Part shown: in pieces, positions 165 to 12,475 of the stretch
Numbering within the stretch: the stretch's first letter is position 1
How the letters are laid out: each line of letters opens with the position of its first letter
NCBI GenBank assembly: GCA_043818055.1
Contig: JBDRGF010000038.1
Location: 1 to 13,057 of the forward strand
Source: Pseudomonadota bacterium
GTDB lineage: Bacteria; UBA10199; 2-02-FULL-44-16; JBDRGF01
Length of the DNA stretch: 13,057 nucleotides
Reading direction: 5' to 3'
The notes under the pieces: model-generated
The model's input: the letters and a program-made list of their open reading frames with translations, nothing else
Databases searched by the model: none
Told to the model about the DNA's origin: nothing
Position numbers and translations under genes: made by a program

Positions 165-899
165 TTACATTTTTTTCAACAATAAACTTTGCGTTTCAGA
201 TGTTGGGTAAAATGGAACAGTAGCATTGCTGTCACCGTAAATACCTTCTACTGTAAATCCAATTCTTTTTGCTATTTTAATGATGGGAGGCAAATACACA
301 TCACAAACTCTGTATACCTCCTGTTCCTTTCTATCACCTATTTCTAAATCATAGGTGAATAGTTTTGTTACTGAATTATCTGAACCATTTACTTCGATAC
401 TCACACTTAATGTACATATCAATTCACCGCCATTCACATTAAACGTTGATCTTCTATAAAAACCATCTTTAGGATTTCCAGGAACATACGATTCGATAAA
501 AAACAAACCTCCTCTAACCAAAGCCTTGTAGACACGTTCTAATAACCTTTGAATTGCGGGTTTACCTTTAAAAAAACTCATACAATGACCAACACATGTG
601 ATAACTTTAAATCGTCCATCAAAGTTCAAATCTAATGCATCTGCTTTAATTAATTCGTAATTAGAATAACCTTTATTTTCTAAAAAAATGCGAGCCTCAA
701 GAAGCATTTCGGTATCGTTGTCAATACCCACAGCTTTAACACCTCGATTAAGAGGAAAAGTCAGAACTCTTCCGGAACCACAACACAAATCCAGAAATAC
801 ATCACTAGAATTACACATGCTACTTAGACGATCTAAAATTAAATTATCACCAAGATTATTAATAAAAATCCTATTATAGTATTTTGCGAATAATCTCAT
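165..899 (-). CDS. Class I SAM-dependent methyltransferase (244 aa), possible tailoring enzyme of the peptide cluster
   Basis: Motif I FLDLCCGSGR, acidic post-beta2 GIDND, ADA motif, and 'VYKALVRGGLFFIE' as in Methyltransf_25/11-type enzymes. AAGAGG lies upstream of the ATG. Last complete gene in the co-oriented minus-strand run. Confidence 0.9.
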   Translation of the reverse strand: MRLFAKYYNRIFINNLGDNLILDRLSSMCNSSDVFLDLCCGSGRVLTFPLNRGVKAVGIDNDTEMLLEARIFLENKGYSNYELIKADALDLNFDGRFKVITCVGHCMSFFKGKPAIQRLLERVYKALVRGGLFFIESYVPGNPKDGFYRRSTFNVNGGELICTLSVSIEVNGSDNSVTKLFTYDLEIGDRKEQEVYRVCDVYLPPIIKIAKRIGFTVEGIYGDSNATVPFYPTSETQSLLLKKM

Positions 900-2432: not shown

Positions 2433-3227
2433 CTATTCGATCGTTATTGATCCTCTGTCTGTTTGAGCATTGATTGTTTTTGTTGGTTTGGATCTTTTCA
2501 ACGTAGCAGTCATGCTGGCCTTTTTATCTTTAATTTTAAATGAATGCTTAAGATTCTCAGCAATTGTAATCTTTCCATTATTGGCTGCTAATCTGAAATC
2601 TGTATTATCAAAGATACTATGATCGACGAATTTCAAAAAGACATTTCCGCTGTGATTTGAAAATATGGCTTTAGATCCATCAGCCAAATCAAAGGATTTA
2701 AACTCCACATTTCCACTTACAATTTCGAAAGTGCTTTTTTGCTTTCCATTCAGCTTGAGATTATCACCGATTATTGATCCGTTTTTCACATGAAAAGTAA
2801 ACGTACCCTGAACACCCGAAATTTGAATTTCCCCGTCATCAATCGTGGCTTTGATCCTCTTCCCATCAGGCACTGCAACCGTAAGGTTGCAAAACCAATC
2901 CCCTTCCACTGTATTACCTGCACTTGGCTGAATTACTTCATACCAGCTATTACTGCTTTTATCCTTTTGGCTATATCCCTCTCTTGTAGCTAGAAGTTTA
3001 GCCGTTTTTTCATTATTGGCCATCAGTTTAGCATTAACATGAAGTTCATCATCTTTTGACTTTATGATTTGAATCAATCCTTTCGTATTCCCTATTTCGA
3101 CCAGATCATCACCCTGCATTTTAAATGTTCGTTCTCGTGTCTCCTTAAATCCATAATCCGATGCAAATGAACAGGTAGATATTGCAGTTACAAATAGCAA
3201 GGGTACTAATACAGAAAACTTTTTCAT
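2433..3227 (-). CDS. Secreted DUF4097-like beta-strand repeat (putative adhesin-type) protein, 264 aa
   Basis: Start moved to ATG 3227, which follows GGGAGG at 3232-3237. Sec signal peptide MKKFSVLVPLLFVTAISTCSFA. Contains 'LTVAVP' and repeated xxGxI/V units (DDGEI, KNGSI, VSGNV, HSGNV, NNGKI, DRGSITI). Confidence 0.75.
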   Translation of the reverse strand: MKKFSVLVPLLFVTAISTCSFASDYGFKETRERTFKMQGDDLVEIGNTKGLIQIIKSKDDELHVNAKLMANNEKTAKLLATREGYSQKDKSSNSWYEVIQPSAGNTVEGDWFCNLTVAVPDGKRIKATIDDGEIQISGVQGTFTFHVKNGSIIGDNLKLNGKQKSTFEIVSGNVEFKSFDLADGSKAIFSNHSGNVFLKFVDHSIFDNTDFRLAANNGKITIAENLKHSFKIKDKKASMTATLKRSKPTKTINAQTDRGSITIE

Positions 3228-3264: not shown

Positions 3265-3564
3265 CTATATTTGAGCTATCTTCTGCCCTTTTTGTACACA
3301 ATTACACTTGGAATCGCAATGACAATAACTTCCGCAGTTATCCTCTCTCGGACAGCCTCTGCCACGGCAAAGAACAATTCCTTGTGCACCATCCCCAAAA
3401 GCCCTTGGAATCAGTAAAACCGACCCCTTGCTGTCCAGATGTTCCGGTAGTTTTGCATATTTTACCCATTTATGTTCTTTAATCCCCTCTTTTTTCTCAG
3501 CTTCTTTCCTTTTATCGCTCTTGAGACCTTCAGATTTCATAATATCATTTTTTACGGTTATCAT
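3265..3564 (-). CDS. Cys-rich precursor peptide P7 (99 aa, 7 Cys)
   Basis: Start moved to ATG 3564, preceded by GGGAGG directly after the P6 stop. Leader HKWVKYAKLPEHL...IPRAF; core CRGRGCPREDNCGSYCHCDSKCNC. Confidence 0.8.
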   Translation of the reverse strand: MITVKNDIMKSEGLKSDKRKEAEKKEGIKEHKWVKYAKLPEHLDSKGSVLLIPRAFGDGAQGIVLCRGRGCPREDNCGSYCHCDSKCNCVQKGQKIAQI

Positions 3565-3574
3565 AAGTCCTCCC

Positions 3575-3835
3575 TTACTTAATGTTGTTACATCCATTAC
3601 ACCCGCACTTCTGATTATCACAGCCACATCTGCTGGGACATGTCACCACACAATCATCGTGCATAACATCTACCACACCAAGTTTAGGTAAGCTTGCACT
3701 TTGATCAGATTTATTTAACATTTTTTTGTGGATGAACTCATATGAATATGTCTTATTGCTCCTGCTCTTTTTTTGGTCATTTGTTCTTTTATCATCTACA
3801 TGAACTACAGGAAGTTGAGATCTTCTAACTTTCAT
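3575..3835 (-). CDS. Cys-rich precursor peptide P6 (86 aa, 7 Cys)
   Basis: RBS AAAGGAG. Leader YEFIHKK...LPKLG; core CVVTCPSRCGCDNQKCGCNGC. Confidence 0.85.
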   Translation of the reverse strand: MKVRRSQLPVVHVDDKRTNDQKKSRSNKTYSYEFIHKKMLNKSDQSASLPKLGVVDVMHDDCVVTCPSRCGCDNQKCGCNGCNNIK

Positions 3836-3849
3836 ATTTTCACTCCTTT

Positions 3850-4065
3850 CTAATTGTTCCCTTTACAATGCTGTCCGCGACAACCGCAATTTCCACCTTC
3901 GCAATGACATGTTTCCGGTTGCACGTATTCATTTGTGTTTATTTTTTTTAAATTATCGTTTTCTTTAATCACCCACTCATGTTTTAATTTATTACTATCG
4001 TTCAATTTCCTTTTGTTATTGAGTGAACCATAATCTTTTATTTTCTGTATTAACCCAATTTTCAT
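3850..4065 (-). CDS. Cys-rich precursor peptide P5 (71 aa, 5 Cys)
   Basis: RBS AGGAGG overlaps the P4 stop (TAGGAGG). Leader HEWVIK with no PKL motif; core CHCEGGNCGCRGQHC. Confidence 0.8.
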   Translation of the reverse strand: MKIGLIQKIKDYGSLNNKRKLNDSNKLKHEWVIKENDNLKKINTNEYVQPETCHCEGGNCGCRGQHCKGNN

Positions 4066-4074
4066 TATTTCCTC

Positions 4075-4329
4075 CTACTCGAAGAGCTTGTTTTTCTGAC
4101 CGTTGCATCCGCATTTGGAGCCCTGGCAGCTACAATCACCGCCGCAATTGATGAGACACGAACTCCTATTATTGCCACTCTCGATGAGTTTTAACTTTGG
4201 CACAATAATATCAAACGAGCTTCTGATCATCTCAAATCCCTGACCTTTTTTATTTCTTATAGAAAGGACTTTGATATTTCGTTCGAAGTCCATCTTAAAT
4301 TCTGCTGCTTTATTATCATGTACTTTCAT
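4075..4329 (-). CDS. Cys-rich precursor peptide P4 (84 aa, 6 Cys)
   Basis: Start moved to ATG 4329, preceded by GAGGTG. Leader FEMIR...IVPKLK; core CLINCGGDCSCQGSKCGC. Confidence 0.85.
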   Translation of the reverse strand: MKVHDNKAAEFKMDFERNIKVLSIRNKKGQGFEMIRSSFDIIVPKLKLIESGNNRSSCLINCGGDCSCQGSKCGCNGQKNKLFE

Positions 4330-4341
4330 ATTCACCTCACC

Positions 4342-4404
4342 AGTGCTTCGTCAATTTAATTTCCACCAGTGGTAATGTAATAATATTAAATTGTTACGAG
4401 CACT
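4342..4404 (-). other. Intergenic imperfect inverted repeat / RNA stem-loop inside the peptide array
   Basis: On the transcript, AGUGCU-CGU-AA-CAAUUUAAU (4404-4385) pairs with AUUAAAUUG-ACG-A-AGCACU (4360-4342): 18 bp with two bulges. No U-tract follows. Confidence 0.65.
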
Positions 4405-4443
4405 TGCGCCGATCATTTAAACAAAGATATAATTCTCACGGTA

Positions 4444-4752
4444 CTATGCAACCATCTTACTGCCGTTACATTTACAATCTGTACCTTTACAACCGCAGTT
4501 TCCTGAACAATCTGCGCCACACAATGAATCACATTTGGCCTGGCATTCACCCCTTTTATATGCTTCTGATGCACTTTTCCCGAAAAGCTTTGGAATATTG
4601 ACTTCAATCGTCGAACTCATTAGATGCTCAGGAAGCCTCGCCTTTATTACCCACTCGGTGTTGTGCGTTTTACTTTTCATTTTCGTCTTGGCTGACTTTT
4701 TGCTCTCATTACTTCCTAACTGGTTTACCGAATTGCTTTTATTAACTTTCAT
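4444..4752 (-). CDS. Cys-rich precursor peptide P3 (102 aa, 8 Cys)
   Basis: Start moved to ATG 4752, preceded by AAGGAGG; this removes the overlap with P2. Leader TEWVIKARLPEHL...IPKLF; core CQAKCDSLCGADCSGNCGCKGTDCKC. Confidence 0.85.
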   Translation of the reverse strand: MKVNKSNSVNQLGSNESKKSAKTKMKSKTHNTEWVIKARLPEHLMSSTIEVNIPKLFGKSASEAYKRGECQAKCDSLCGADCSGNCGCKGTDCKCNGSKMVA

Positions 4753-4771
4753 TGATTTACCCTCCTTTAAT

Positions 4772-5062
4772 TTATTTAATTTTATTTTTGCTTGCACAGT
4801 TACTTCCACACTTTGTTCCGTCGCAGCCACACCTGGTACCGCATTCAGCTCCGCATAATGTTCCGCAAATACATTTGTTATCAAACAACTTTGGAACAAA
4901 GTTGTCGCGTTTCATATTTGTTATTTCGTCGGACAACCTATGTTTGTAAATCCATTCATAACGATTAACATCTTTTTTTTGTGCGGTTTTGTCCTTTGTG
5001 GCCTCTGTTACAATCTTTTTTCTTTCCAGGTGAACGTTCGGTTTGTTCTTGTTAATTCTCAT
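4772..5062 (-). CDS. Cys-rich precursor peptide P2 (96 aa, 8 Cys)
   Basis: RBS AAGGAGG. Leader YEWIYKHRL...FVPKLF; core CICGTLCGAECGTRCGCDGTKCGSNC. Confidence 0.85.
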   Translation of the reverse strand: MRINKNKPNVHLERKKIVTEATKDKTAQKKDVNRYEWIYKHRLSDEITNMKRDNFVPKLFDNKCICGTLCGAECGTRCGCDGTKCGSNCASKNKIK

Positions 5063-5077
5063 ATCCCCTCCTTTTGT

Positions 5078-6484
5078 TTATTGTTTTATAGATGATGTTG
5101 TTGATTTATTCTGTTTCTTCCAAATCCCGGACTTGTAATAGTTTTTTAACTTAGCGATGAGGTTAAATTTCATCGTCTGGCACGATGCTTCGCTCTTATC
5201 CACCAGAAGCCTTGCAGGACACCAACCGAGGCAGGCAGGAAATATTTTACAGGTCTTACATTTCCTGATCAAAAATGGGTCGTAATTGTACCATTTAAGA
5301 GTTTTTTCATCTAAGTCCACACCTTCTGACAGCGTGCCGATCTGTTCCGTTTCTGTTCCAACATACTCCCAGCACTTTTGTAATCCACCCTTTGGTTCAA
5401 CGACAAAGCTGTTCAACATATCCGCAGTGCATGCACTAAACCTCCTCTGGGGTGGTTCTTCGATTTTAAAGCCCTTCTTTTCAGCATACTTGGTCAGTTC
5501 TGATTCGAGTGGCGCAAAATCTTTAAAAGAATAGAGCTTATTACATCCTGAACCATAATTTTTACAGACAGCACTTGAAACATTAAAGCTGTCATGAACA
5601 GGGGCAAAATATACATATACTTTTTTTTGCAACCCCTTTTCTACGAGAATATCGACAAGCTTTTTTGCATCGTTCACATTGCTTTTATCAATATTACATC
5701 TGAGGTTGATATTGATCAGATCACAGGTATCGCAGACATTTTTAAGTATTTTATTGAACGACCCTCCCTTTGGCGATGGTCTTCTCTTATCATGCACATC
5801 TGGAGGGCCATCCAGGGTAATCTGGGCGAATGTCACTCCTAGTTTTTTGAGTTTTTTTGCCCTCTCCCTTGTAAAAAGCACTCCGTTAGTAATAATTGAA
5901 CCGCTGTATCTGGCTTTATACTTCTTACAGGAACTAATAAACTTCCTTGAGAGTTCGCATATTTGTTTATATCTAAGAAGTGGTTCTCCTCCATACCAAC
6001 ACACACTCAAATCCTTTATACCTCTTTCCAGTTGTGTCTTAACAAAATCCAGAAGATGTTTTGCTACCTTTGGTGACATGCAGTCCTTGCTCAGACATTC
6101 ATAACAGTATTTACATCTCAGATTGCAGTTAGTCGTCGGAAGGACTGTTAATGATAATGAATTCAAATTAAATCTGGCGGCTTTATTTCTAAATCTTAAA
6201 TAGGCATCTTCATTAAACTCTTGCGGTACAACAAAACCGCCAGAGATCATTACTTTCTTTAAATCATCAGGGATTGTCTTCCATCTTTTATCTATACCAT
6301 TGCTATTATATTTTTTGATCTTATTTCTGCTTTCAGCCAGCCAACCTAATGTATCTTTTGCATCTCTTGAAAATTTTACAAAATTACCGCGCAGGGTATT
6401 GAATAAAAAATAAATATCCTTTTCAACAAAACCCATGTTAAATTCCGACGCAAAGTATTTGTTATCAGTTTTATTCTTTCCCAT
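5078..6484 (-). CDS. Radical SAM/SPASM domain peptide maturase (468 aa) with an N-terminal RRE-like region
   Basis: Start moved to ATG 6484, preceded by AAGGAG; this removes the overlap with P1. Motifs: CxxxCxxC (CNLRCKYC), YGGEPLL, ITNG, QITLDG. Complete 7-Cys SPASM motif C-x13-G-x4-C...C-x2-C-x5-C-x3-C-x12-C. About 110 aa N-terminal extension. Confidence 0.95.
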   Translation of the reverse strand: MGKNKTDNKYFASEFNMGFVEKDIYFLFNTLRGNFVKFSRDAKDTLGWLAESRNKIKKYNSNGIDKRWKTIPDDLKKVMISGGFVVPQEFNEDAYLRFRNKAARFNLNSLSLTVLPTTNCNLRCKYCYECLSKDCMSPKVAKHLLDFVKTQLERGIKDLSVCWYGGEPLLRYKQICELSRKFISSCKKYKARYSGSIITNGVLFTRERAKKLKKLGVTFAQITLDGPPDVHDKRRPSPKGGSFNKILKNVCDTCDLININLRCNIDKSNVNDAKKLVDILVEKGLQKKVYVYFAPVHDSFNVSSAVCKNYGSGCNKLYSFKDFAPLESELTKYAEKKGFKIEEPPQRRFSACTADMLNSFVVEPKGGLQKCWEYVGTETEQIGTLSEGVDLDEKTLKWYNYDPFLIRKCKTCKIFPACLGWCPARLLVDKSEASCQTMKFNLIAKLKNYYKSGIWKKQNKSTTSSIKQ

Positions 6485-6509
6485 CTTTTCTCTCCTTATT
6501 ATTAAATAA

Positions 6510-6830
6510 TTATTCTGCCTTCTTACCATAATTATAGCAGTCCGGCTTTTGCATTCCTTTATCACAGTCGCACTTGACGCCGACGCAATTGCATTTACTT
6601 CCGCAATTGAGCAGGCAGAGATTGTCACACGGGCCAGACGGTCTCTTGTTTGTATCTGTAAAGAGTTTTGGGAAATTCTTAACACTCTTATATGTTGAGG
6701 GCGTATCGCTTAAATCATTTTCAAAAATCCACTCTGCACTGCTTTTTGTTTTTTCTTTACTTCTTTGGCTTGTTTTCGTTTTTACAAGCTGATTTTTAAC
6801 AACATCACTTTGACCTGTCTTGTTAATCAT
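6510..6830 (-). CDS. Cys-rich precursor peptide P1 (106 aa, 8 Cys), first gene of the operon
   Basis: RBS GGGAGG. Leader AEWIFENDL...NFPKLF; core CDNLCLLNCGSKCNCVGVKCDC...C. Confidence 0.85.
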   Translation of the reverse strand: MINKTGQSDVVKNQLVKTKTSQRSKEKTKSSAEWIFENDLSDTPSTYKSVKNFPKLFTDTNKRPSGPCDNLCLLNCGSKCNCVGVKCDCDKGMQKPDCYNYGKKAE

Positions 6831-7513: not shown

Positions 7514-8959
7514 TTATTCTTGCATCGAGTGCAAACTCATTCGTCTTGCACTAACAAAAAGGATGGCAATAAATAGGATGAAAAACATAAGGGAAACAGC
7601 CATACTTCTAATGTCCGTGGAATCGCGTGTAAGCGAACAGCTCATGGCTTTGGCGCCGGAAGCGCCTCCTGAAAAAGCGTTACCGGCGATATCTTGTCCT
7701 TCGGGAACGGATTCGACGGTTGGACTGCCCTCTCCCACTCCATTCATACCTGAACCTCCGGATGGCACTTCGACCTGGTCGATTGAGGTGAAAACGATAT
7801 TCCCTCGTGTCCAAAGAGCTGTCGTTGAGCGAGTGCTGCCGCTGGGACCTGTGTAGGTAGCCATGACGTATTTTCTCTGAATGGCAGGATCGGAAATCGT
7901 AATAGCATCGCCACCTTTTGTGAGTTCGCTATCTTTAAGGTCATATCGAATCCGAAACGCTTTCAGCTGATTTTGTTTTTGATTGATATCGTCGCCGGCT
8001 TCATAGATTTCAACATATCTGATGGAGTTGTCTTTTGATGATGCTGATTGTGGCAAAATAAATGTTGGTTTGTCTTTGATAAGTTGTGAATCAATCATCC
8101 CAATATTCGAATTAGCCCCCTCTTCAAGTATGAAAGCTTTTTCTGCCTCAATTCCTCCTCCATTGTCGTAGAGAGAAACCTTCGATAACGTGAGGTTTTT
8201 GACGTCTGCATCAGCTCGGATGCCGTAGAGCTTGTTATTCGTGATGATGCTCTCTTCGATGAGGATGTTTTCACCTTCACCATAGATGCCGATATCGAAA
8301 TTTGATATGGTGACATCATCAATGGTTACGCCTTTGCCTTGTGTCTTAATTCCTGTCGAAAATGCTGGAGGTGATTCTGGAACTCCTGTCAGCTTTGAAT
8401 TTGTCACCAAACACCCATTTGAACAACTGAGCTCGATTCCCTTTTTGGATTTATCGATCGTGATATTGTGGAGGAGAAGATAAACATCGAAGTTTACAGC
8501 AAGACCTACATTTTCCCCATCAAATACAAGCCCTGAAATGATTATTGGTTTGTTATCGTATGAAGGTTTTGCAAGTTTTATTGTACTATCTAAAGCACGT
8601 GGATATATTATCAACTGCCCATTATTTATTTTTTTGATTCCTATCTTAAAACAAAATTCATAGTAACTGTTATTTACAAGATAGACAGAGTTTGGATCAA
8701 CAACGTTATCAGAAACTATTTTTTCAGCTACATCTGCCTTATCTGTCACTATGAGGTTAGGATCGTTCTCTGGACAAAGATTCGCTAGTTCAATATCAAT
8801 ATTCGTATTTGGAATTTTAAAAAGATTAGATTCCAACTGAACAAATGTTGGAGGAGATACATAAATCTGTGGGTTGTCAAAAGTGGCAAGCTGCTCTGCT
8901 GAAGCAATACTTCCACACAATATCATGAGCAAAAAAGTTGTTATCGCTATCTTTTTCAT
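7514..8959 (-). CDS. Secreted / membrane-anchored protein with right-handed parallel beta-helix repeats and a C-terminal sorting-signal-like tail (481 aa)
   Basis: Start moved to ATG 8959, giving signal peptide MKKIAITTFLLMILCGSIASA. PbH1-like repeats (KGIEL, TGIKT..GVTIDDVTISNFDIGI, NILIEESIITNNKLYGI, NLTLSKVSLYDNGGGI). Then a Gly/Ser-rich linker, SCSL, a hydrophobic helix and RR at the C-terminus. Confidence 0.75.
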   Translation of the reverse strand: MKKIAITTFLLMILCGSIASAEQLATFDNPQIYVSPPTFVQLESNLFKIPNTNIDIELANLCPENDPNLIVTDKADVAEKIVSDNVVDPNSVYLVNNSYYEFCFKIGIKKINNGQLIIYPRALDSTIKLAKPSYDNKPIIISGLVFDGENVGLAVNFDVYLLLHNITIDKSKKGIELSCSNGCLVTNSKLTGVPESPPAFSTGIKTQGKGVTIDDVTISNFDIGIYGEGENILIEESIITNNKLYGIRADADVKNLTLSKVSLYDNGGGIEAEKAFILEEGANSNIGMIDSQLIKDKPTFILPQSASSKDNSIRYVEIYEAGDDINQKQNQLKAFRIRYDLKDSELTKGGDAITISDPAIQRKYVMATYTGPSGSTRSTTALWTRGNIVFTSIDQVEVPSGGSGMNGVGEGSPTVESVPEGQDIAGNAFSGGASGAKAMSCSLTRDSTDIRSMAVSLMFFILFIAILFVSARRMSLHSMQE

Positions 8960-8978
8960 GTGCCCCCGCCATCTCTTA

Positions 8979-8995
8979 TGCATTTTCGAGGCCAA
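8979..8995 (-). promoter_or_regulatory. Possible third sigma54 promoter, for the beta-helix gene
   Basis: Minus strand reads TTGGCCTCGAAAATGCA, with correct GG-N10-GC spacing but several mismatches. It would leave only a ~10 nt 5' UTR. Confidence 0.4.
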
Positions 8996-9157
8996 CTTTC
9001 TACCTTGCAAGCTATCATTATTCAGTTGAAAATTCAACAAGTTAGAATTTATTCAAAAATCGCATCGGGTAAAATCTACCCCCTATATATGAGGGTACCG
9101 TCAAAATTGACTAATAAACTTCATGATGCTAGGTTCTCGTCAACCGGGAGGCTTGTG

Positions 9158-12100
9158 ATGATAGGAAATGCCTCTAAAAATATAAGAAATTTCAACGTCA
9201 ATGTAGGGGCGGGTTTGAAACCCGCCCTATTTGTTTTTAAAGCCTCCCCCCTCAGGGGGGGAGGTAAGGTGTGGGGTGGGTTTGCTCGCCACATGCTACA
9301 TGCCACATGCTACATACTGCTTTTGCTTTTAACTGCATGTGGTTCTAATAGAAACAACGCTATTCAGGAAGATGTTGCAACTCCTATAACCAAAGAAATC
9401 ACACCTGAGGATATGATAATGTCAGATCGCTATCTTGGCGAACTTGTTGTGCATTTCAGGGATGATTTGGTAGTGAGGTTGAAGGAATTACCCCCTCCCA
9501 GCCTCCCCCGTATTAAAGGGGGAGGGGTGAGCACAACAAAACAGCAACCCCGTTTTGAAGTGCGCAACTTCTATTATCAAAGCCTCTCAGATGATCTTAA
9601 TAGAATACTCGAAGAACACCCGTCAGTAGATGTGAGACGCTATCTAACGATGGAACAGGAGGAGTATGATACCTTCAAACGTGATCTTGAAGACTTAAAC
9701 TCCGAAGAGCTGCCCGATCTCAACTCGATCTATTACTTCAAAGCAGAACCTAAAGAAGCTCTCATTTTATACAACAAGCTTAAAAACCTCTATGGAGTTG
9801 AATATATTTATCCACATCTTCAAAAGGTGCTTACTGCCACAACTACGCCCGACCTTTCATCCCAACAGGGATATCTTACATCAAACGGCGGTATAGACGC
9901 CCAATATGCCTGGAATCTTGGTGTCATGGGAAAAGGTGTGCATATTTATGAAGAGGATAGCGCATTCAACTTCGACCATGAGGATTTGCAGCTCGATTAC
10001 ACCGTCTATAACGAAAAGACAAATCCGAAAGGTTCACTCGTAAATAGCGTATCATCTCTCGGGGCACATCTGCCCCCGGAAAAGCAGCCGTTTATAATGG
10101 TAGGTGTTCCACTTGATGCCGCATTTGCCCATGGGACTGCTGTCGCAGGAGTCTTGAATGCATCGCACAACAATGGTACTGGAAATTTTGGAGTAAAGGG
10201 AATCGCACCAGATGCAAAGCTATTGGCGGGACTCACAGATGAGAGAAATTTATATTATGGCGCTGTCGTTGTTATCGAATCTGCAGTCACAGGCAAGGAT
10301 GGTTGTGAAAAAACGACAGGCGGTCTCGATGATCCCTGTTTTGGCAAAGGTCAGCTCCCATGTGAAGTCGTCCCTGATGAGATGAAATACTATCAAACGC
10401 TTGCTGCTATAGGCATTACAGTCGTTGAAGGTGCGGGAAACTCCAGCCTCGATATCGGCGATCCGAGCCAGTACACAGGCAAATGGAGTATATGGGTGAA
10501 TCCCACCACACAGGATAGCGGCGCGATTATGGTGGGGGCAAGCGATGGTGCCAACATGCAAAAGGCAGCCTTTAGCAATTACAGCCCCAGAGTCGATGCG
10601 TATTCATGGGGCAAGGGCATCGTCACGACTTCGTATCCCTACGGCGATGCTGCAACCAGCCCATTCTATTGGAGCGGACCAAATGGCCCAACGTCTCAGG
10701 ATCCTACTAATGATAAAAACAGATTTTATACAAACAGATTCAACGGCACATCCGGGGCAACTGCGATAGTCGGAGGTGCCGTCACATTGGCACAAAGCAG
10801 GTTTATGCAATTAGCGGGCAATGGCAGAATGAGATACATCATGCCGAAGAAGATGAGGGAACTCGTGAGAACAAGCGGGGATAGTCAGAAGGATACAACA
10901 AACCAAAACATCGGTGTCCAGCCGAGGATGGATAAACTATTGAAAGTAGTTGATAACTACTGGCAGACGATTTCTGCAAAATACCCTGCATTGAAACAAC
11001 AATTGGGGAGCACCAATCGCATGACGAAGCAGGAGATCATCGCGATGCGCTCTGATGGTGTTGGGATTGTGTGCATAAAATACGACCCTGACGGTAGTTC
11101 GAGCGATCCTCTATGTTCAGATGGCCTCCTTTGGCCGAGGGCAGACCAGATGAGTGTCGATATGGATATCGAAGGCGATGGTTTGATGGACTTAGTCAGT
11201 TGGAAGAGAGGAGAGTTTAAAATCGACCTCAGTTCGCAAGGTGCAGCATCAGCATGGTGCTCCGATCTCAAAGGAGTCAGGGAAACCGATGGCTATTGTG
11301 ACAAATTTCCAGAAAAATATGGTTCATGGGATATAGTGATTAAATACACCGATATTAACAGTAAGTGGCTCTTGCCATATGTGAAAGACATGGATGCGGA
11401 TCATCGCTCAGATCTCATGCTCTACGATAAAGAACACGGCAGATGGTATATCGAATATATGAATGTCGATTATATCAGCAAGAAAGAGAATCGAATCGCA
11501 AGTTGGGACAAAACACTGCAATATGACTGGAAAGACGAACTGAATATCGATCCATGGAAAAGTAAATATTCAAGGCCTGCGGTGAGCGATTTGGCAGCTG
11601 CAAATAAAAAAGATTATTCTTATGCGGACGGTTGGACAGATATTTCAATCTTATGTTCAGATGGCTATTGGCGTGTTGACTTTGGAGGACTCAACGGTCC
11701 CGATGGCAAATGGGATATCAAGACTAAATACCTCACAGATGAACAGTTAAAAGTAGCTCCAGGCTGGGCGTATCAGCCGTACGTGAGCTCCTCAAGAAAT
11801 TATGAATCTATCGAAAAACTAATGGTCGACAATTTACCATATTATGTGGAAGCCCTATACGTAAAAAATCCTGACACGATTCTGAATGGAGGAAAGTTTA
11901 GTGGAATATGGGACGCGGGAGCAGGAGATATAGCCGAAGGAAACTCTGATCATTTTGAATATTGCAGGATCACTAAGGAATGTTCAACGGAATCTCCTGT
12001 TATCGGAGGAAATGAATCGATTCTTATCCCTTATTCAGGATGGAGCTATACAAGAACCGATTATCCAAATTTAGGTGTGTTTATTCCTGGTGAGAGTTTT

Positions 12101-12475
12101 GATCTTTTAATACGAGGAGAAGCTTCAAGACGACCTGAGAACTTTCAACCGGTGAAGGTTGATTTAAGCTGCAAACCTCTCACGATGGATGATCGCTACA
12201 TCTTCCAATGCAAAGATGAATGGATAATAGTAGCTGATTCTTACAGATGTGCGAACTGGGGAAAAAACAGCGTGGGTAAAGATATATGCACCGATGAAAC
12301 ATGGGGCATCAAGCACATCCCACTGAGTTACGATCCCGGCGACTTCACCCTCCCCGGCCAGCCATACATCGGCGGCATCAGCTATTTAGATACTCAAAAG
12401 ATCATTCAAAACTCTTTACTTGAGAATCCAAACACTCCTCCACCTATCATCGTCGATATGCCGATGATTAAGTAA
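9158..12475 (+). CDS. S8 family (subtilisin-like) serine peptidase, predicted lipoprotein, with C-terminal FG-GAP/VCBS-like repeats
   Basis: Catalytic motifs IYEEDSAFNFDHEDL (Asp region), HGTAVAG (His), GAGN (oxyanion Asn) and FNGTSGA (Ser). Lipobox LTAC with Cys codon at 9338. DxxGDGxxDL-type motifs DIEGDGLMDL, DMDADHRSDL, DGWTDI. Start uncertain: ATG 9158 has GGGAGG at 9146-9151; ATG 9293 is the alternative. Confidence 0.88.
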   Translation: MIGNASKNIRNFNVNVGAGLKPALFVFKASPLRGGGKVWGGFARHMLHATCYILLLLLTACGSNRNNAIQEDVATPITKEITPEDMIMSDRYLGELVVHFRDDLVVRLKELPPPSLPRIKGGGVSTTKQQPRFEVRNFYYQSLSDDLNRILEEHPSVDVRRYLTMEQEEYDTFKRDLEDLNSEELPDLNSIYYFKAEPKEALILYNKLKNLYGVEYIYPHLQKVLTATTTPDLSSQQGYLTSNGGIDAQYAWNLGVMGKGVHIYEEDSAFNFDHEDLQLDYTVYNEKTNPKGSLVNSVSSLGAHLPPEKQPFIMVGVPLDAAFAHGTAVAGVLNASHNNGTGNFGVKGIAPDAKLLAGLTDERNLYYGAVVVIESAVTGKDGCEKTTGGLDDPCFGKGQLPCEVVPDEMKYYQTLAAIGITVVEGAGNSSLDIGDPSQYTGKWSIWVNPTTQDSGAIMVGASDGANMQKAAFSNYSPRVDAYSWGKGIVTTSYPYGDAATSPFYWSGPNGPTSQDPTNDKNRFYTNRFNGTSGATAIVGGAVTLAQSRFMQLAGNGRMRYIMPKKMRELVRTSGDSQKDTTNQNIGVQPRMDKLLKVVDNYWQTISAKYPALKQQLGSTNRMTKQEIIAMRSDGVGIVCIKYDPDGSSSDPLCSDGLLWPRADQMSVDMDIEGDGLMDLVSWKRGEFKIDLSSQGAASAWCSDLKGVRETDGYCDKFPEKYGSWDIVIKYTDINSKWLLPYVKDMDADHRSDLMLYDKEHGRWYIEYMNVDYISKKENRIASWDKTLQYDWKDELNIDPWKSKYSRPAVSDLAAANKKDYSYADGWTDISILCSDGYWRVDFGGLNGPDGKWDIKTKYLTDEQLKVAPGWAYQPYVSSSRNYESIEKLMVDNLPYYVEALYVKNPDTILNGGKFSGIWDAGAGDIAEGNSDHFEYCRITKECSTESPVIGGNESILIPYSGWSYTRTDYPNLGVFIPGESFDLLIRGEASRRPENFQPVKVDLSCKPLTMDDRYIFQCKDEWIIVADSYRCANWGKNSVGKDICTDETWGIKHIPLSYDPGDFTLPGQPYIGGISYLDTQKIIQNSLLENPNTPPPIIVDMPMIK
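9203..9230 (+). repeat. GTAG-type REP-like palindrome
   Basis: GTAG-GGGCGGGTTT-G-AAACCCGCCC-TAT: a 10 bp perfect inverted repeat preceded by a GTAG tetramer. Reads VGAGLKPAL in the protease frame. Confidence 0.75.
9243..9281 (-). repeat. C/G-tract palindromic repeat, copy 1
   Basis: CCTCCCCCC-TCAG-GGGGGGAGG hairpin (9243-9264) followed by a G-rich flank. Same architecture as 9491-9527 in the opposite orientation. Confidence 0.65.
9288..9318 (+). repeat. Heptamer tandem repeat (ACATGCY) x4
   Basis: acatgct acatgcc acatgct acatact at 9291-9318; GCCACATGCTACAT is exactly duplicated (9288-9301, 9302-9315). Confidence 0.75.
9491..9527 (+). repeat. C/G-tract palindromic repeat, copy 2, in frame within the protease prodomain
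   Basis: CCCCCTCCCAG-CCTCCCCC-GTATTAAA-GGGGGAGG-GG, with an 8 bp stem at 9502-9525. Encodes PPPSLPRIKGGG. Confidence 0.7.

Follow-up and report, generated by a model that had tools for sequence, protein, structure and literature searches.

The 13,057-nucleotide contig JBDRGF010000038.1 (the window, one whole contig) carries on its minus strand seven genes for Cys-rich precursor peptides (P1-P7) and, among them, the gene for a radical S-adenosylmethionine (SAM)/SPASM enzyme. Two short motifs recur in the long leaders of these peptides, E-W-(I/V) (motif 1) and, further downstream, P-K-L (motif 2). The locus is a variant form of the known thioether-forming systems for ribosomally made, post-translationally modified peptides (RiPPs) that depend on a RiPP recognition element (RRE), and the leader feature is real and conserved. 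It appears fairly probable to us that motif 1 is an inward-moved tag held on the wing of this RRE, where it would enable thioether links in seven different cores, with motif 2 being secondary. Paralogous precursors in a RiPP cluster can be expected to have leader motifs in common, and finding them is in itself little surprising. Recognition sequences set the substrate acceptance of RiPP enzymes and are a handle for precursor discovery and engineering. If motif 1 works internally, the five-residue tag of the Clo7bot/CefA type is portable and position-independent; with seven natural substrates that have different cores, the enzyme is a candidate broad-range cross-linking catalyst.

Seven paralogous precursors with two leader motifs

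The minus-strand gene run has the order P1, radical SAM enzyme, P2-P7, DUF4097-like protein, family 5 solute-binding protein and methyltransferase. The intergenic gaps are 9-37 nt across the run and 9-25 nt for the seven precursor open reading frames (ORFs), the single exception being the 114 nt between P3 and P4. P1 (6510..6830, 106 aa, 8 Cys) has EWI at 6726-6734 and PKL at 6663-6671; P2 (4772..5062, 96 aa, 8 Cys) has EWI at 4949-4957 and PKL at 4886-4894; P3 (4444..4752, 102 aa, 8 Cys) has EWV at 4648-4656 and PKL at 4585-4593. P4 (4075..4329, 84 aa, 6 Cys) carries a degenerate EMI (4225-4233) and PKL (4192-4200), P5 (3850..4065, 71 aa, 5 Cys) EWV (3970-3978) and no PKL, P6 (3575..3835, 86 aa, 7 Cys) EFI (3731-3739) and PKL (3680-3688), and P7 (3265..3564, 99 aa, 7 Cys) KWV (3463-3471) and PRA (3400-3408). 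Each peptide starts with an ATG behind a purine-rich sequence resembling a Shine-Dalgarno (SD) sequence. This ATG differs from the start of the longest ORF in P3 (ATG at 4752, preferred over TTG at 4899), P4 and P7 (ATG at 3564); the choice was made mainly because of the SD sequences and the gene spacing of 9-37 nt.

Numbered from these starts, motif 1 reads AEWIF in P1 (E33), YEWIY in P2 (E36), TEWVI in P3 (E33), FEMIR in P4 (E33), HEWVI in P5 (E30), YEFIH in P6 (E33) and HKWVK in P7 (K32). Motif 2 is FPKLF, VPKLF, IPKLF, VPKLK, LPKLG and IPRAF in P1-P4, P6 and P7, respectively, and is lacking in P5. All motifs of the original prediction were found at the residues it had named. The best shared 3-mer and 4-mer of the leaders, EWI and YEWI, exceeded 1000 out of 1000 composition shuffles, and so did PKL and IPKL, the best ones after motif 1. 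Motif 1 is degenerate in P4 and P6 and weak in P4, whose EMI was aligned with it in one MAFFT alignment and left unaligned in another. In P1, P2, P3 and P7 the alignment points to a longer form, E-W-(I/V)-x-K-x-x-L-(P/S)-(D/E). The spacing from the Glu of motif 1 to the Pro of motif 2 is 21 in four of six peptides, 11 in P4 and 17 in P6.

The same prediction regarded the peptides as otherwise dissimilar. They are instead diverged paralogues: identity to P1 is 22-29%, four Cys are invariant, and a core of repeated CxCxGxx (CxCxGxxCxC being common to the precursors) stands behind leaders of 52-69 residues. The shared motif position is thus partly a matter of shared descent. Five motifs fell inside a 7-residue span, as the five Trp-bearing ones do, in 134 of 200,000 uniform-placement trials, a figure that has to be read with the non-independence of paralogues in mind. 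The fixed position, which had been put forward as independent support for the start codons, gives modest support; it is not independent, the peptides being paralogues and the position ranging from 22 to 73 in relatives. A recent duplication of the precursor genes at the DNA level was rejected (matches between the genes are short only). No further precursor copies were found in the genome beyond the seven, a single-sequence scan of the genome contigs found no relative, and P3 had no usable match in an Atlas search.

The first ~30 residues are basic and unalignable, as had been claimed. They contain 8-10 Lys plus Arg per 30 residues, whereas 1740 long ORFs of the genome average 4.0 (4.7% of them reach 8). 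No motif is shared in the stretch ahead of motif 1, for which 766 and 796 of 1000 shuffles were as good. Two other readings of this extension were rejected: a start codon immediately ahead of motif 1 (the codons at this place in P1-P7 are GCA, TAT, ACC, TTT, CAT, TAT and CAT) and a secretion signal (best 9-residue mean hydropathy of -0.3 to 1.2). This basic stretch likely serves as an unstructured tether whose sequence is weakly constrained.

The maturase and its putative recognition tag

The maturase (468 aa, 5078..6484, minus strand) has a PF04055 radical SAM domain above the cut-off with CxxxCxxC at C120/C124/C127, and a SPASM domain of predicted fold (TIGR04085, 51.5 bits, cut-off 27) with seven Cys (352, 371, 409, 412, 418, 422 and 435). 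An AlphaFold2 (AF2) model built from 114 sequences (mean predicted local distance difference test score, pLDDT, of 92.9) predicts an RRE at residues ~10-90, with strands 16-21, 24-29 and 34-39 followed by helices; its best structural matches over the whole chain are the CteB structures 5WHY and 5WGG. Among NCBIfam families, the enzyme scores best against TIGR04463 (CrpC family; 292.6 bits), below the cut-off of 525, and it is also below the cut-offs of 600 for the Clo7bot maturase family TIGR04334 (241 bits) and the CefB family NF038107 (215.8 bits). None of the seven peptides matches TIGR04333 or NF038108, so that enzyme and peptides are outside every curated family tested. Two further SPASM radical SAM genes with weak similarity are located elsewhere in the genome (G000:C75:11322-12593 and 24028-25224).

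CrpC, a TIGR04463 enzyme, is reported to install ranthionine links (PMC13692751). A search of 401 genomes for TIGR04463 members at E<=1e-130 returned none, its control likewise giving no signal. Six catalytic-proximity positions are defined in PMC10288494. In the window enzyme, aligned by eye with CteB and CrpC alone, they are Y128, Y164, I198, T223, W372 and E373; in CrpC they are F, F, V, T, W and E (read by eye; PMC13692751). In the precursor cores, CxC is followed by D, N, E or Q in 9 of 14 cases, compared with 46 of 161 non-Cys core residues. From the CrpC-like proximity residues, the seven SPASM Cys and these CxC contexts we infer thioether chemistry, a Cys-to-carbon link that is probably ranthionine.

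Under the favoured explanation, one RRE-type radical SAM/SPASM enzyme would serve all seven diverged precursors. The RRE would capture motif 1 as an added β-strand; the leader of CteB is known to bind by extending the RRE sheet (PMC6231123). By analogy with CteB, a core Cys would then bind to auxiliary cluster I at its open site, and the deoxyadenosyl radical would abstract a side-chain hydrogen from a nearby residue, the putative acceptor. In this way several Cys-to-carbon thioether rings (probably ranthionine) could form in each CxCxGxxCxC core, after which a protease whose gene lies elsewhere would cut off the leader; motif 2 would act as a secondary contact or landmark.

The tag itself was defined on 159 loci with related enzymes. 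Candidate precursors were ORFs on the same strand, 22-150 residues long and no more than 2.5 kb away, that had an SD sequence and at least 7% Cys; this gave 89 ORFs from 51 loci (locus L113 excluded), some of them clearly no precursors (e.g., one rubredoxin-like ORF). A start of the type M-x-[WYF]-[IVL] is present in 53 of the 89 candidates (25 of 51 loci), and Pro follows at position 7 in 39 of these. The family N-terminal tag can thus be written M-[EK]-[WYF]-[IVL]-x-x-P (e.g., MEWIVNP, MKWISNP, MKYIVKP); in the 53 tagged candidates, the first Cys is a median of 15 residues away. Among 29 tagged candidates scanned, four were above the Clo7bot cut-off and one above the CefA cut-off.

A five-position matrix was built from residues 2-6 of all 89 candidates, with no motif selection. 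Its top site is motif 1 in six of the seven window leaders (P1, P2, P3, P5, P6 and P7), and motif 1 ranks third in P4, whereas residues 2-6 of the window peptides themselves score negatively in each case. Per 1000 shuffles, the motif 1 score was matched by 11 in P1, 5 in P2, 44 in P3, 120 in P5, 5 in P6 and 545 in P7, and it is above 95% of the shuffles in four of seven leaders. This ranking, together with the fact that no start codon precedes motif 1, suggests that motif 1 is likely the family N-terminal tag, displaced ~30 residues inward behind the basic extension. The match to a conserved tag and the predicted RRE fold make motif 1 a likely RRE-binding strand. The original prediction had assigned this role to both motifs: it stands as likely for motif 1 and has no direct support for motif 2.

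The named RRE motifs include YxxP, Lx4F, HIxxI, FxLD and W/Y/LxxP (PMC12710340), and motif 1 may already be among the 13 recognition motifs of that paper. Literature searches with the motif strings returned unrelated word matches only, among the matches listed, and a search for literature on recognition in multi-precursor clusters found none.

The motifs could also be remnants of tandem duplication, or could act as protease or transporter signals, and not be read by the maturase at all. The paralogy of the peptides would fit this, as would the lack of a peptidase in the window's gene run (which has no exporter either; the contig stops 164 nt after the methyltransferase gene), and the homologue in genome G005, which is followed by a protein resembling a tail-specific protease (read by eye, no family scan). 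However, the flanks have diverged past detectable similarity while the motifs were retained, and the same type of tag precedes very different cores beside related enzymes in many lineages. We consider this explanation highly improbable.

Motif 2 was matched in none of the 89 short-leader candidates and therefore belongs to the extended-leader group, across which only its hydrophobic-Pro pair is constant. It might nevertheless be the true RRE strand, of a hydrophobic-x-x-P-x-L type similar to W/Y/LxxP, motif 1 then being a relict or secondary copy. In five of six window peptides, 12-16 residues separate the motif 2 Pro from the first Cys, near the family median leader length of 15; P3, P4 and P7 read VxxP, IxxP and LxxP, W/Y/LxxP being widespread as an RRE motif (PMC12710340); and the family matrix chooses DIIVP in P4 and ranks EYVQP, a second tag-like stretch at residues 46-50, second in P5. 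On the other hand, P1, P2 and P6 have no hydrophobic residue three places ahead of the Pro, P5 and the L113 peptide of G005 keep motif 1 with no motif 2, and it is motif 1, not motif 2, that matches the family tag. This makes motif 2 an improbable RRE strand; it is likely a subfamily-specific second contact or a landmark for leader cleavage. Its candidate roles are thus a further contact with the enzyme, pairing with motif 1 in a hairpin, or marking the cleavage site.

Homologues with extended leaders

A precursor profile searched against 1.84 billion representatives had 16 matches, seven of which were the window peptides or a near-identical variant. Both motifs are kept beyond this genome. 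Three independent homologues repeat the window layout: P0139 (VWI at 35, VPRIF, spacing 19), P0141 (EWI at 38, FPQL, spacing 20) and P0144 (EWV at 30, IPTIF, spacing 20). Note that the profile search itself favours matches of this kind. As other relatives have motif 1 at 22 or 43-73, a position of ~33 is a subfamily trait; the claim of a fixed position holds within the subfamily and fails outside it. Within the phylum, which is small (93 genomes available for comparison), the profile matched in two genomes, G000 (that of the window) and G005.

The two best-scoring related loci, L113 and L034, each have a precursor with an extended leader. In L113 (G005, a genome of the same taxonomic order) the full tag with Pro, EWIAMP, is at residue 22 and motif 2 is absent. 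The L034 precursor has EWVVKP, again the full tag with Pro, at residue 49, followed later by VPKK and by the core CGCDGSQCGCQG. The enzymes of the window, L113 and L034 fall into one 13-member branch (Shimodaira-Hasegawa-like approximate likelihood ratio test, SH-aLRT, 96; quick tree of 52 rows), in which no locus with a short-leader precursor was found, the precursors of the other ten members being outside the comparison.

Precursors of the L034 type (L034:5520-5936 and P0127, P0129-P0136, P0138, P0140, P0142 and P0143) form an unnamed family of 13 members, in which motif 1 is at 43-73 (at 24 in one, probably partial, member). Their leader of ~60 residues is strongly conserved and precedes a CGCDGxQCGCQG core, with a follower-like tail at the C-terminus; the members scanned have no NCBIfam match. 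Full-length profiles tie the window type to the L034 type (hhalign probability 95.8%, E 7e-9, Cys core included).

The L034-type leaders bring up another explanation, namely that the two motifs are positions of a small leader domain, folded or folding on binding, in which they pack together and dock as a unit, as proposed for the N-terminal domain of CrpA. These 13 leaders are conserved throughout, with an invariant Trp, P-T-G and a Pro exactly 16 residues past the Glu. An AF2 model of the L034-type precursor has strands at 44-49, 55-62 and 68-71, with a block of pLDDT 67-78 over residues 31-80. F33-x-V-x-P37-x-G39 and P52 of CrpA/CrpB are in register by eye, and the spacing of 21 in four of six window peptides and of 19-20 in the three homologues would also fit. 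Against this, the window extensions are basic, poor in hydrophobic residues and unalignable; the spacings of 11 in P4 and 17 in P6 deviate, and P5 and the L113 peptide have no motif 2; furthermore, the model was built from 13 sequences with a mean pLDDT of 52, and the likeness to Crp was read by eye only. A leader domain of this kind in the window peptides is therefore unlikely in our view. A fold search with the L034-type model gave a best Z of 2.8 and no Foldseek match at E<=0.001, which shows neither novelty nor absence.

Several observations weigh against motif 1 as a displaced, strand-forming tag. With a Pro column added, the matrix ranks motif 1 first in just four of seven leaders, because the Pro of the family tag is kept in none of the seven window motifs; the best matrix match in P4 is near motif 2. 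The layout of P0139, P0141 and P0144 is known from the peptides alone, and leader-only profiles of the window and L034 types do not connect (hhalign 12%, best hidden Markov model E 0.67). In the L034-type model the motif is the middle strand of three, which is poorly placed to join an RRE. In the published model CrpA is recognized by the RRE through its first five residues, and deletion of the RRE left some CrpA processing (PMC13692751); PapB is active in vitro without a leader (PMC12715619), and SuiA binds outside the RRE of its enzyme (PMC6231123). A complex prediction with RRE residues 1-110 and P3 residues 22-66 scored 0.01 in both runs and was counted neither way.

As a more tentative proposal, the window, G005 and L034-type clusters might represent an undescribed clade of thioether-forming maturases with extended two-site leaders, in which the tag has moved inside and the leader is folded in some members, whereas in others a basic tether carries what is left of it, the two motifs. 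If so, the clade would form a bridge from Clo7bot-type peptides with short leaders to CrpA, a protein substrate, and the window would hold a seven-member poly-thioether peptide library served by one enzyme.

Gene neighbourhood and known systems

Downstream of P7, at a distance of 37 nt and in the same gene run, lies the gene of the DUF4097-like β-strand-repeat protein (2433..3227, minus strand), which has a hydrophobic N-terminus. It is followed by the homologue of solute-binding protein family 5 (PF00496; 936..2408, minus strand), whose start has no obvious signal peptide; both genes are closely coupled to the precursor genes. The class I SAM-dependent methyltransferase (165..899, minus strand; contig end 164 nt downstream) is a possible tailoring enzyme. 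Upstream of the cluster (7514-12475), the minus strand encodes a beta-helix protein that has a Gly-rich linker and a hydrophobic C-terminal tail, and the plus strand a divergent subtilase (S8) of 1171 aa, in which the stretch LLLLLTAC is lipoprotein-like. Promoter and terminator scans were no better than chance. One groundwater RNA run has contigs identical to parts of the cluster; such contigs are no proof of transcription.

The gap between P3 and P4 is occupied (4342-4446) by a dispersed repeat with a 69-bp imperfect palindrome and 21 long genome matches, the other 20 at 81-94% identity. Among 17 copies listed, the other 16 begin after CT. The repeat may be a miniature transposable element of ~105 bp; it has no Rfam match and a folding z of -1.55. 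Its far end touches the P3 stop codon, and P0121, a P3 variant from another assembly, is nine residues longer.

In G005 (L029:3912-7557), one precursor is followed by a 547-aa protein, similar to tail-specific proteases, and by a membrane protein of 386 aa resembling a major facilitator superfamily (MFS) transporter (both read by eye). These proteins are candidates for leader removal and export and have no counterpart in the window. In G014 (L030:5691-5987, same taxonomic order), a 14-Cys precursor with a different leader adjoins two radical SAM genes.

The family that scores best for the window enzyme, TIGR04463, includes CrpC of Methanococcus voltae (PMC13692751). CrpC shares with it the RRE (predicted in the window enzyme) and SPASM domains, seven auxiliary Cys and, by eye, similar catalytic-proximity residues. 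CrpA shares with the window precursors a long leader ahead of a Cys-rich core and, by eye, CrpA/CrpB have the F33-x-V-x-P37-x-G39 and P52 register mentioned above; the L034-type leader also resembles the CrpA N-terminal domain by eye. However, CrpA has a length of 298 residues, contains ten 17-residue repeats and is predicted to fold in its N-terminal domain, whereas the window has seven peptides of 71-106 residues with basic, unconserved extensions and CxCxG cores. They do not correspond to the large Cys-rich protein substrate of TIGR04463.

The Clo7bot (TIGR04333/TIGR04334) and CefA/CefB (NF038108/NF038107) systems have a related maturase and several precursor genes per cluster, and precursors near related enzymes carry the M-[EK]-[WYF]-[IVL]-x-x-P tag that motif 1 matches. 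Their tag stands at residue 2 of leaders that span ~15 residues, whereas in the window it is at 30-36, lacks the Pro and stands in leaders of 52-69 residues with a second motif.

CteB/CteA (thermocellin; six Cys in forty-five residues, SCIFF, type) and PapB/PapA (freyrasin) share the RRE-radical SAM-SPASM architecture. Among solved structures, CteB (5WGG/5WHY) is the best sequence and structure match to the window enzyme, although the structural identity is ~18% and the proximity residues are F, F, T, S, H and Q. CteA and PapA have single short leaders; the end of the PapA leader, PIRAY, appears loosely similar to PRAF of P7. Finally, the sactipeptide system StsA/StsB/StsC (PMC10288494, PMC12710340) shares a Trp-led recognition sequence, WxxP, and a Gly-containing, CxC-rich core. 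It differs in that StsC is a separate RRE, StsB belongs to the MftC group and the core is CxCxCx4GxGxG; unlike the WxxP of StsA, motif 1 of the window has no Pro three residues past the Trp.

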